Shown one piece after another: positions 48,930 through 61,886 of a DNA stretch of 64,000 nucleotides (position 1 is the stretch's first letter; each line of letters starts with the position of its first letter). The position numbers were made by a program, and so were the translations under genes. The stretch lies in the NCBI RefSeq assembly GCF_044324875.1, contig NZ_CP172185.1, one strand, 5' to 3'. The notes below the pieces were generated by a model. The model was not told the origin of the DNA, searched no databases, and saw only the letters and a program-made list of their open reading frames with translations. The DNA comes from Escherichia coli (GTDB lineage: Bacteria > Pseudomonadota > Gammaproteobacteria > Enterobacterales > Enterobacteriaceae).

Positions 48930-49058
48930 TAGGCCGGATAAGGCGTTCACGCCGCATCCGGCAATCAACGCCTGATGCGACGCTCGCGCGTCTTATCAGG
49001 CCTACAACTGTCGTTGACATGTAGCCGGATAAGGCGTTTACGCCGCATCCGGCAAAAT
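48930..49058. repeat. BIME: three REP palindromes in alternating orientation between uppP and cca
   Basis: GTAGGCCGGATAAGGCGTTCACGCCGCATCCGGCAATC / GCCTGATGCGACGCTCGCGCGTCTTATCAGGCCTAC / GTAGCCGGATAAGGCGTTTACGCCGCATCCGGCAAAAT. Confidence 0.8.
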
Positions 49059-56877: not shown

Positions 56878-56956
56878 CCGGAAAGCGGTTCACAGATCTC
56901 GCTTCGAACCTGGCAGGCCTATTGACGCTGTTTTTTTTCAACCTAAAGTAAAGGAA

Positions 56957-57100
56957 CAAGGGTGAGGGAGGATTTCTCCCCCCTCTGATTGGCTGTTAAT
57001 AAGCTGCGAAACTTACGAGTAACAACACAATCAGTATGATGACCAGCTTCATCATAACCCTTTCCTTATACAAGGCCCCTTCTTCGGGAGGGGCTTTCCC
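56957..57100 (+). ncRNA. sibE: Sib-family antisense sRNA (antitoxin), hldE-proximal copy; ends approximate
   Basis: Promoter TTGACG(56922)-N16-TAAAGT(56944); terminator GCCCCUUC-UUCG-GGAGGGGC + UUU at ~57076-57100; fully overlaps the opposite-strand ibs ORF; symbol assigned by position, from memory. Confidence 0.55.
56996..57055 (-). CDS. ibsE: Ibs-family 19-aa hydrophobic type I toxin peptide (MMKLVIILIVLLLVSFAAY)
   Basis: Reverse-strand ATGATGAAGCTGGTCATCATACTGATTGTGTTGTTACTCGTAAGTTTCGCAGCTTATTAA; too short for the ORF track; which ibs paralog is a positional guess. Confidence 0.65.
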   Translation of the reverse strand: MMKLVIILIVLLLVSFAAY

Positions 57101-57332
57101 GTTTCAGCCCCTTGCTGACTCCCCGATTGTTGATGAGCGCCAGACCCCGCGCAATGCTTTCCCTGATGCAGTTTTGCCTTCCCCGAGCCGTCACGCAAAA
57201 TGCTGCAACAGCCTGATCATTTGCACCTTTTAGCGGAACGCAGATATAAAAAATCCCCGGCTTTTTGGGCCAGGGATGTGGGATAGAGAAACCTTCTTGA
57301 CGCTGATTTTTTTTCAACCTAAAGTAAAGGAA

Positions 57333-57478
57333 CAAGGGTAAGGGAGGATTTCTCCCCCCTCTGAATTGGTTGTTAATAAGCCTGGAAACTTACTAGTAAC
57401 AACACAATCAGTATGATGACGAGCTTCATCATAACCCTTTCCTTCTATAAGGCCCCTTCTTCGGGAGGGGCTTTCCCG
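57333..57478 (+). ncRNA. sibD: Sib-family antisense sRNA (antitoxin), yqiK-proximal copy; ends approximate
   Basis: Promoter TTGACG(57297)-N17-TAAAGT(57320); same UUCG-loop terminator at ~57452-57478; symbol assigned by position, from memory. Confidence 0.55.
57373..57432 (-). CDS. ibsD: Ibs-family 19-aa hydrophobic type I toxin peptide (MMKLVIILIVLLLVSFQAY)
   Basis: Reverse-strand ATGATGAAGCTCGTCATCATACTGATTGTGTTGTTACTAGTAAGTTTCCAGGCTTATTAA; differs from copy 1 at residue 17 (A vs Q) and by synonymous changes. Confidence 0.65.
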   Translation of the reverse strand: MMKLVIILIVLLLVSFQAY

Positions 57479-59989: not shown

Positions 59990-60257
59990 ATGTCACTCCA
60001 ATGTCCATTTAGTGACGCAATATTTACTTTAGGATAGTTTCCTTGCTTACATTTATCTTTGTTAATAATAACACATGTTAGAGAAGTTCTGGAAGAGAAA
60101 GTCTTTTAATATGGTTTTTTATTTTTCACTAAAAAGTGTGATCGGGGACAATATATTTACGCACGTTATGTTTAAAGGCACTACACTGATTGGGGAATAC
60201 TGAAATCAGAAAAAGCATATGGCCTTAAAAGGTATGCGATAACCGGAGGATGTGCTT

Positions 60258-60458
60258 ATGGATCATAGTCTTAATTCTTTAAATAATTTCGATTTCCTGG
60301 CGCGTAGTTTTGCCAGAATGCACGCAGAAGGTCGCCCGGTCGATATTCTGGCCGTTACTGGTAACATGGATGAAGAACATAGAACCTGGTTTTGCGCACG
60401 TTATGCCTGGTATTGCCAACAGATGATGCAAACCAGAGAACTTGAATTAGAACACTGA
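60258..60458 (+). CDS. glgS: GlgS (surface-composition / glycogen-associated small protein)
   Basis: Track ORF 60252..60458 begins at GTG; conserved start ATG 60258 ([29 protein letters not shown]...) with SD GGAGGA; 66 aa. Confidence 0.85.
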
Positions 60459-60464
60459 TATTAC

Positions 60465-60490
60465 GGGCCGTCTGGCCCGTTTTTGTGTTG
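60465..60490 (+). terminator. Intrinsic terminator after glgS (sits between convergent glgS and ubiK stops)
   Basis: GGGCC-GTCT-GGCCC followed by GTTTTTGTGTT. Confidence 0.65.
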
Positions 60491-60492
60491 CT

Positions 60493-60792
60493 TTATTCTG
60501 CTTTATCAATAGGCGGGATAGCCGGAGGAGATTGAAGATCTGCTACCGAATTATTGCGCGCTTCCAGTTCACTGATGCGCTGCTCCAGTAATGCCAGTTT
60601 CTCACGAGTCCGTAACAGGACTTGCGTCTGTACGTCGAATTCTTCGCGGCTCACCAGATCGAGACGCGTCAGCTGCGCTTGTAGGGTTTGGCGGATTTTT
60701 TTCTCCACATCTTCCCCGAACTCCCTGATTCCTTTAGGCATTGATTCGTGAACCTGGCGAGCGATTTGCTCAATTTTTTTCGGGTCAATCAT
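60493..60792 (-). CDS. ubiK: Ubiquinone biosynthesis accessory factor UbiK (YqiC), coiled-coil
   Basis: Track ORF 60493..60852; start taken at ATG 60790-60792 ([29 protein letters not shown]...). Confidence 0.8.
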
Positions 60793-60904
60793 TGTAGTTT
60801 CCCTGTACTGATAGGTGTTGAATGCCATTGTAGTGCGATAAGGGTAAGTCATAAACCAGAATTATGTGAAGCTATGCGTTGCTGCCGCTAATCATTAGCG
60901 TTAT

Positions 60905-61165
60905 AGTGAACCCGCTTATTCTCAGGGCGGGGCGAAATTCCCCACCGGCGGTAAATCAACTCAGTTGAAAGCCCGCGAGCGCTTTGGGTGCGAACTCAAA
61001 GGACAGCAGATCCGGTGTAATTCCGGGGCCGACGGTTAGAGTCCGGATGGGAGAGAGTAACGATTCTGTCGGGCATGGACCCGCTCACGTTATTTTGGCT
61101 ATATGCCGCCACTCCTAAGACTGCCCTGATTCTGGTAACCATAATTTTAGTGAGGTTTTTTTACC
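60905..61165 (+). promoter_or_regulatory. FMN riboswitch (RFN element) leader of ribB
   Basis: Conserved RFN segments AGGGCGGGGCGAAATTCCCCACCGGCGGTAAA ... AGCCCGCGAGCGC ... GGACAGCAGATCCGGTGTAATTCCGGGGCCGACGGTTAGAGTCCGGATGGGAGAGAG upstream of ribB ATG. Confidence 0.8.
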
Positions 61166-61819
61166 ATGAATCAGACGCTACTTTCCTCTTTTGGTACGCC
61201 TTTCGAACGTGTTGAAAATGCACTGGCTGCGCTGCGTGAAGGACGCGGTGTAATGGTGCTTGATGATGAAGACCGTGAAAACGAAGGCGATATGATCTTC
61301 CCGGCAGAAACCATGACCGTTGAGCAGATGGCGCTGACCATTCGCCACGGTAGCGGTATTGTTTGCCTGTGCATTACTGAAGATCGCCGTAAACAACTCG
61401 ATCTGCCAATGATGGTAGAAAATAACACCAGCGCCTATGGCACCGGTTTTACCGTGACCATTGAAGCGGCTGAAGGTGTGACTACCGGTGTTTCTGCCGC
61501 TGACCGTATTACGACCGTTCGCGCAGCGATTGCCGATGGCGCAAAACCTTCTGATCTGAATCGCCCGGGCCACGTTTTCCCACTTCGCGCGCAGGCAGGT
61601 GGAGTACTGACGCGTGGCGGTCATACTGAAGCAACTATTGATCTAATGACGCTGGCAGGCTTTAAACCGGCTGGTGTGCTGTGTGAGCTGACTAATGACG
61701 ATGGCACGATGGCGCGTGCACCAGAGTGCATTGAGTTTGCCAATAAACACAATATGGCGCTCGTGACTATTGAAGATCTGGTGGCATACCGTCAGGCACA
61801 TGAGCGTAAAGCCAGCTGA
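61166..61819 (+). CDS. ribB: 3,4-dihydroxy-2-butanone-4-phosphate synthase RibB
   Basis: Track ORF 217 aa [42 protein letters not shown]... Confidence 0.9.
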
Positions 61820-61851
61820 AAACCGCTGCTTAATTTACTGCCTTAATCAAG

Positions 61852-61886
61852 AAACCGAAGTTGTAGCAGGCTTCGGTTTTTATTTT
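61852..61886 (+). terminator. Intrinsic terminator after ribB
   Basis: AACCGAAG-TTGTAGCAGG-CTTCGGTT followed by TTTTATTTTT. Confidence 0.65.

Follow-up and report, generated by a model that had tools for sequence, protein, structure and literature searches.

What lies upstream of ribB on this Escherichia coli chromosome, and by what mechanism could it control the gene? The region belongs to a window of 64,000 nucleotides, in which the 1.1 kb around the ribB element are 100% identical to several complete genomes. The original prediction placed upstream of ribB a leader of about 260 nt, at 60905-61165, that contains the segments of an RFN element and makes expression of the gene responsive to FMN. 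The mode of action of the switch was not stated.

The whole window was scanned against Rfam, and a single FMN riboswitch was found. The match to RF00050 at 60914..61062 (E 1.1e-27) has a score of 120.9 bits, almost double the gathering score of 66.2, so that the lack of a covariance-model hit, which was to refute the prediction, did not occur. The score above the gathering score is reached over the full model, as the match spans positions 1-138 of 138. Sixty-five of the 66 highly conserved consensus positions are retained, the sole departure being C for U at 60933 in the P2 loop, and the structure line of the aptamer has a single non-canonical pair. All six helices P1-P6 are present around the conserved junction nucleotides. 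The element is situated in the 5' leader of a riboflavin gene, 103 nt upstream of an ORF on the same strand that is identified as RibB by TIGR00506 (287.7 bits, cut-off 177.45), and the same arrangement was found in 27 other species. RefSeq annotates both an 'FMN riboswitch' and ribB at the coordinates of the Rfam match and the ORF. The identification of an FMN riboswitch upstream of ribB is thus borne out by the Rfam score, the protein family and the annotation.

The transcript most likely starts at 60914, not at 60905. With +1 at 60914, the residues C175, G176 and U181 of the published numbering fall on 61088, 61089 and 61094, and the proposed anti*-P1 pairing of 141-149 (AGAGUAACG) with 175-183 (CGUUAUUUU) is reproduced as well (PMC11571811). 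Positions 60905-60913 are then DNA upstream of the transcript, that is, the end of the TATAGT hexamer (60902-60907) and the discriminator. The exact +1 and the promoter hexamers are what we infer from the sequence; the -35-like hexamer TTGCTG is below the threshold of the consensus promoter scan. The leader 60914..61165 is 252 nt long, instead of about 260 nt, with the first 149 nt forming the aptamer and the last 103 nt the expression platform. Hence the interval proposed originally does precede the ribB start at 61166 and does contain the RFN element at full length, but its left border lies too far upstream, and the element covers only the aptamer part of it.

No base between +1 and the AUG distinguishes the leader from that of E. 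coli K-12 MG1655, where the element is also called SroG. The aptamer, anti-P1, anti*-P1, the sequestering stem and the pauses are the same, as are the immediate neighbours, with ubiK divergent and ribB downstream. The only difference in 326 aligned bases is upstream of +1, at 60911 (position -3), where the window has C and K-12 has T. Because of this identity, the experiments published for K-12 apply base for base. Binding of FMN to the K-12 sequence was demonstrated by RNase H probing of nascent transcripts (PMC11571811) and by photoaffinity labelling (PMC9204756), and FMN protects the probes directed at P1 and at the sequestering stem (PMC11571811). FMN is sensed only within a window of transcription that has the +247..+249 pause (61160-61162 here) as its border, and sensing is poor at EC-247 (PMC11571811). 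RNA polymerase occupancy shows that Rho attenuates ribB (score 3.1), an effect lost in the rho R66S mutant (PMC5499598). In a purified system, Rho terminates more on the ribB leader when ribocil-C is added (PMC10085680), and both ribB mRNA and riboflavin rise when 223 bp of the element are deleted (PMC9885008). As the K-12 sequence is identical, the leader in the window may be credited with the same FMN binding and pause sites, with repression of translation and with dependence on Rho, and the anticipated FMN response of ribB is supported by the switching and repression published for K-12 (PMC11571811; PMC5499598; PMC10085680).

Since it is annotated in RefSeq and the K-12 experiments were published on an identical leader, the element is already known. 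It is the specific E. coli ribB riboswitch, annotated and experimentally dissected before, and more than a mere member of the family. We have very little doubt that it is an OFF switch that acts by sequestration of the start site and Rho termination in the leader. Its parts are listed in the table.

Table. Features of the ribB locus and its FMN riboswitch (positions in the window; 28 leaders, the comparative set described in the text).
Feature	Position	Strand	Basis or remark
-35-like hexamer TTGCTG, putative ribB promoter	60879..60884	+	read from sequence; 17-bp spacer to TATAGT
-10 hexamer TATAGT, putative	60902..60907	+	6 nt upstream of the putative +1
+1 of the ribB leader, putative	60914	+	published numbering fits; first base of the Rfam match
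FMN aptamer (RFN element), helices P1-P6	60914..61062	+	RF00050; RefSeq; 65/66 conserved positions
P1, 5' strand UUAUUCUC	60916..60923	+	Rfam structure line; 93.7% paired in 28 leaders
anti-P1, 5' strand UCAGGGCGG, overlapping P1 and J1/2	60922..60930	+	RNAduplex
P1, 3' strand GAGAGUAA	61053..61060	+	Rfam structure line, pairs checked
anti*-P1, 5' strand AGAGUAACG	61054..61062	+	+141..+149; proposed in PMC11571811; present in the MFE structure
Linker hairpin CGGG-CAUGGA-CCCG	61070..61083	+	in the MFE structure
C-rich, G-poor stretch, candidate rut	61074..61133	+	+161..+220; composition only: 20 C vs 11 G
anti*-P1, 3' strand CGUUAUUUU	61088..61096	+	+175..+183; holds published pause sites C175 (61088) and U181 (61094); PMC11571811
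Conserved box ACUCCUAAGAC	61111..61121	+	near-invariant in 24 other Enterobacterales leaders
anti-P1, 3' strand CUGCCCUGA	61121..61129	+	61126-61129 also form the base of the sequestering stem
Sequestering stem, 5' strand CUGAUUCUGGUAA	61126..61138	+	hairpin -16.7 kcal/mol
Shine-Dalgarno box GUGAGG	61150..61155	+	GAGG core pairs weakly (G-U/A-U) with UUUU 61145-61148 in the predicted OFF hairpin
Sequestering stem, 3' strand UUACCAUGAAUCAG	61161..61174	+	covers the AUG (61166-61168) and ribB codons 2-3
ribB CDS, 3,4-dihydroxy-2-butanone-4-phosphate synthase, 217 aa	61166..61819	+	ORF; TIGR00506; RefSeq
Intrinsic terminator 3' of ribB	61850..61881	+	13-bp stem, then T-run

The platform contains mutually exclusive structures that are linked to P1, as seen both from shared bases and from folding of leader prefixes. 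The anti-P1 duplex (-18.6 kcal/mol by RNAduplex) shares positions 60922-23 with P1 and positions 61126-29 with the sequestering stem, and this double sharing is the logic of the switch. The sequestering stem has 13 base pairs, with the Shine-Dalgarno box in its weakly paired apical part. The published probe '218', which is protected by FMN (PMC11571811), falls on the 5' strand of this stem if its name is read as its start position (about +218..+227). When prefixes of increasing length are folded, the 150-nt RNA forms the aptamer with P1, those of 215 and 247 nt form anti-P1, and the 282-nt RNA has the sequestering hairpin. This order agrees with the published good sensing of FMN at the +175 pause and poor sensing at +247 (PMC11571811). 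Equilibrium folding of the full leader shows no switch: the local sequestering hairpin is present in every MFE structure, whether P1 is imposed or not. Therefore the switch depends on the co-transcriptional order of folding. The folding energy of the whole leader is no better than that of shuffled sequences (z -0.16).

The following scheme is by far the most probable. Transcription would start at about 60914, and the six-helix FMN aptamer would form from the first 149 nt. Binding of FMN while the polymerase is in the linker would lock P1 (60916-23 with 61053-60), making the 5' strand of the aptamer unavailable to 61121-61129. The 61126-61138 strand would then be free to pair with 61161-61174, so that the AUG and codons 2-3 of ribB are buried and the Shine-Dalgarno box is weakly paired. 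Burial of the start would block initiation of translation, and Rho would terminate transcription in the leader and early ribB, acting on the untranslated, C-rich RNA of the linker. In the absence of FMN, the 5' end of the aptamer would pair with 61121-61129 to form anti-P1, and the 3' strand of P1 with 61088-61096 to form anti*-P1; the start region would stay open, and ribB would be transcribed and translated.

The pairings were compared across species. Species-representative genomes were scanned with a pattern derived from the 3' part of the aptamer only, yielding 120 loci in many phyla. A monofunctional ribB gene lies 100-225 nt downstream in 27 of them (24 from Enterobacterales, one from Vibrio and two from alphaproteobacteria). 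Together with the window, the full leaders were aligned as 28 rows anchored on the 5' motif of the aptamer; a fixed upstream cut of 117 nt had been dropped, as it cut into P1 in species with long inserts in P2/P3. In these 28 leaders, the OFF structure, that is, the aptamer helices and the sequestering stem, is 98.0% paired, versus 35-56% when the partners are slid, and five pairs are changed on both sides, a number reached by none of 500 shuffles. The aptamer helices are 94-100% paired, with compensatory changes in P5. The sequestering stem is 98.1% paired and shows two compensatory pairs and one change of A-U to G-U. A61129 is replaced by G in five leaders and still can pair both with U60922 in anti-P1 and with U61171 in the stem. 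Anti-P1 is paired to 98% and almost invariant, and thus covariation cannot support it. The anti*-P1 helix is 83% paired in the 28 leaders, has no covariation and breaks outside Enterobacteriaceae, and its duplexes in individual species, compared with shuffled linkers, have weak z-scores between -2.3 and +1.4.

The coding side of the sequestering stem is constrained as well. Among 94 invariant degenerate amino-acid columns of RibB from 23 species, codons 2 (AAT) and 3 (CAG) are the only two without synonymous changes, and the other Asn codons of these 23 genes are split between AAC and AAT. The ATG was placed in this comparison by the motif ATGAATCAG, which taken alone is circular; tblastn, which places the start independently, recovered ATGAATCAG in 26 of 27 loci. 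This constraint at the level of codons supports the predicted sequestering stem.

Within E. coli, the block consisting of the riboswitch and ribB is present in 5425 of 5426 complete genomes. The leader is at least 99% identical in 4958 genomes, versus 374 for the 1.1-kb block including the coding sequence; the ribB coding allele of the window differs from that of most E. coli genomes. One of the 5426 genomes is without the block, and a few carry it twice (5428 places in 5425 genomes), one place being on a plasmid.

The next question is how Rho enters this regulation. The stretch from the aptamer to the start codon lacks an intrinsic terminator, as in Rho attenuators of the ribB/mgtA type, and a candidate rut may be placed by its base composition at +161..+220 (C/G = 1.82). 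The published data place rut sites in the riboswitch sequence, with +184..+193 being exposed by FMN (PMC11571811). One possibility is that Rho acts only indirectly, terminating because translation is blocked, and no rut is directly exposed in the leader. Bastet et al. demonstrated this route for thiM, linking translational control and Rho (PMC5499598), and it would fit the observations that constraint in the platform is strongest at the start codon and that, instead of a sharply defined rut, there is only a 60-nt region with C>G. However, ribocil-C adds 7 percentage points to stand-by Rho termination in a purified system without ribosomes (PMC10085680), ribB is classed as an example of direct control (PMC5499598), and FMN increases the accessibility of +184..+193 (PMC11571811). 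As termination by Rho depends on the ligand even without ribosomes (PMC10085680), a direct component is argued for, and we consider the purely indirect route rather improbable.

Another candidate for interaction with Rho is the conserved box at 61111-61121. It sits in the stretch with C>G, and its flanks vary both in length and in content in the 24 other Enterobacterales leaders. The CUCCU of the box pairs in the MFE structure with GGGAG of the aptamer core (61049-61053), a part of the FMN pocket. As GGGAGA was fixed by the pattern used to collect the loci, covariation between GGGAG and CUCCU is not readable from these leaders. The cited literature on the ribB leader assigns no role to the box, and the linker structures were called unresolved and the role of the linker uncertain (PMC11571811). 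The box might be the actual Rho-loading site or, in the ligand-free state, a third anti-aptamer strand acting on the GGGAG core; this suggestion is tentative, and we would sooner expect it to fail than to hold. If true, either role would refine the model of ribB regulation and leave its kind unchanged. The comparative map of constrained linker bases could guide mutagenesis.

The name SroG is in use for the element (PMC9885008, PMC9204756), and premature termination would release an RNA of the size of the aptamer, which could act in trans as a small RNA in addition to the role in cis. However, the observed pattern of conservation is fully explained by the helices acting in cis, and no evidence for a target or a trans function of SroG was found in the searchable literature. 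A trans-acting role thus seems very unlikely.

The linker hairpin at 61070-61083 is a further covarying structure. Three of its four pairs change on both sides (CAGG/CCUG, CGAG/CUCG, UGAG/CUCA), and there are nine compensatory cells, compared to 3.3 +/- 1.5 in shuffles, none of 500 shuffles reaching this number. The U-run that follows it, at 61090-61096, has four U in E. coli and E. albertii and five to seven in most leaders of Citrobacter, Enterobacter, Serratia, Pantoea and Dickeya, which raises the question of stronger termination or pausing at this site in some relatives. Such a hairpin, followed after 6 nt by UUAUUUU, could be read as an intrinsic terminator of the Bacillus ribD type that needs no Rho. 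The published pauses at +175 and +181 are within the U-run (PMC11571811), and a background termination of 6-16% is observed without Rho (PMC10085680). However, the stem consists of just 4 bp (-5.5 kcal/mol) and is separated from a short and interrupted U-run, the hairpin competes neither with P1 nor with any antiterminator, and control at the level of mRNA is lost in the rho mutant (PMC5499598). The terminator scan found no terminator-like sites on the plus strand in 60914-61165, the only ones nearby being the site after ribB and one inside ubiK. With no terminator on this strand of the leader and only a 4-bp hairpin, a platform of the B. subtilis ribD type was rejected, and Rho-free termination at this hairpin is hardly credible.

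Finally, there is an ORF at 61075..61215 (46 codons, out of frame with ribB) whose translation might regulate the gene, but it has no upstream Shine-Dalgarno box, the loop of the covarying hairpin contains its ATG, which most other genera lack (GGGCACA, GGGCTTCG and others), and regulation by this non-conserved leader peptide was rejected as next to impossible.

The ribB element, an FMN-controlled OFF switch with start sequestration and Rho termination, can be compared with other systems. The leader of the B. subtilis ribD operon (ribDEAHT) belongs to the same RF00050 family and has the same ligand, the same OFF logic and the same role in control of riboflavin synthesis, but it uses a kinetically driven intrinsic terminator/antiterminator pair (PMC11571811), in contrast to the start sequestration and Rho of the present leader. 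Ligand-dependent Rho termination in a long leader is shared with the Mg2+ leader of mgtA from Salmonella and with thiM, thiC and lysC (PMC5499598, PMC10085680), although the aptamers and ligands of these differ from those of ribB. Direct exposure of rut is ascribed to ribB and mgtA, and the indirect route via translation to thiM (PMC5499598). The impX riboswitch of Fusobacterium nucleatum, whose crystal structures are cited in PMC11571811, has the same six-helix fold of the aptamer by family membership; it controls a transporter gene, whereas the ribB element controls a gene of synthesis.

Through this element, expression of ribB, the committed branch that provides riboflavin with its four-carbon unit, follows cellular FMN. 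The riboswitch has been validated as an antibacterial target (roseoflavin, ribocil) and serves as a model for riboswitches coupled to Rho. The accepted picture is unchanged by our analysis, whose value is in correct annotation. The feature table returned for the K-12 record NC_000913.3 (3182500-3186000) contains no riboswitch or sroG feature, and E. coli genomes annotated by PGAP do list the riboswitch; this is an inconsistency of annotation, not of biology.

The divergent gene ubiK (60493-60852, minus strand) is an ORF of 119 aa. RefSeq gives 99 aa with the start at 60792, which is 121 bp from the ribB +1, and the UbiK family profile covers only residues 21-109 of the longer ORF; therefore the 20 extra N-terminal codons are probably not translated. 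In K-12, the next gene after ubiK is the fimbrial gene ygiL. In the genomes identical to the window, ubiK is directly followed by glgS, yqiJ and yqiK (about 59990-60500 in the window), and hence this strain type lacks the fimbrial gene cluster of which ygiL is the first gene in K-12.

Several other RNAs were observed elsewhere in the window. Two tandem SIB RNAs match RF00113 at 56922-57070 and 57297-57447 on the plus strand (145.3 and 142.5 bits). From the K-12 map we take them to be sibD and sibE, antitoxin small RNAs of the ibs type I toxin genes. A match to naRNA4, a REP-derived nucleoid-associated RNA, is located at 48932-49002 on the plus strand (83.1 bits), and a tRNA gene at 36524-36596 on the minus strand (73.1 bits).
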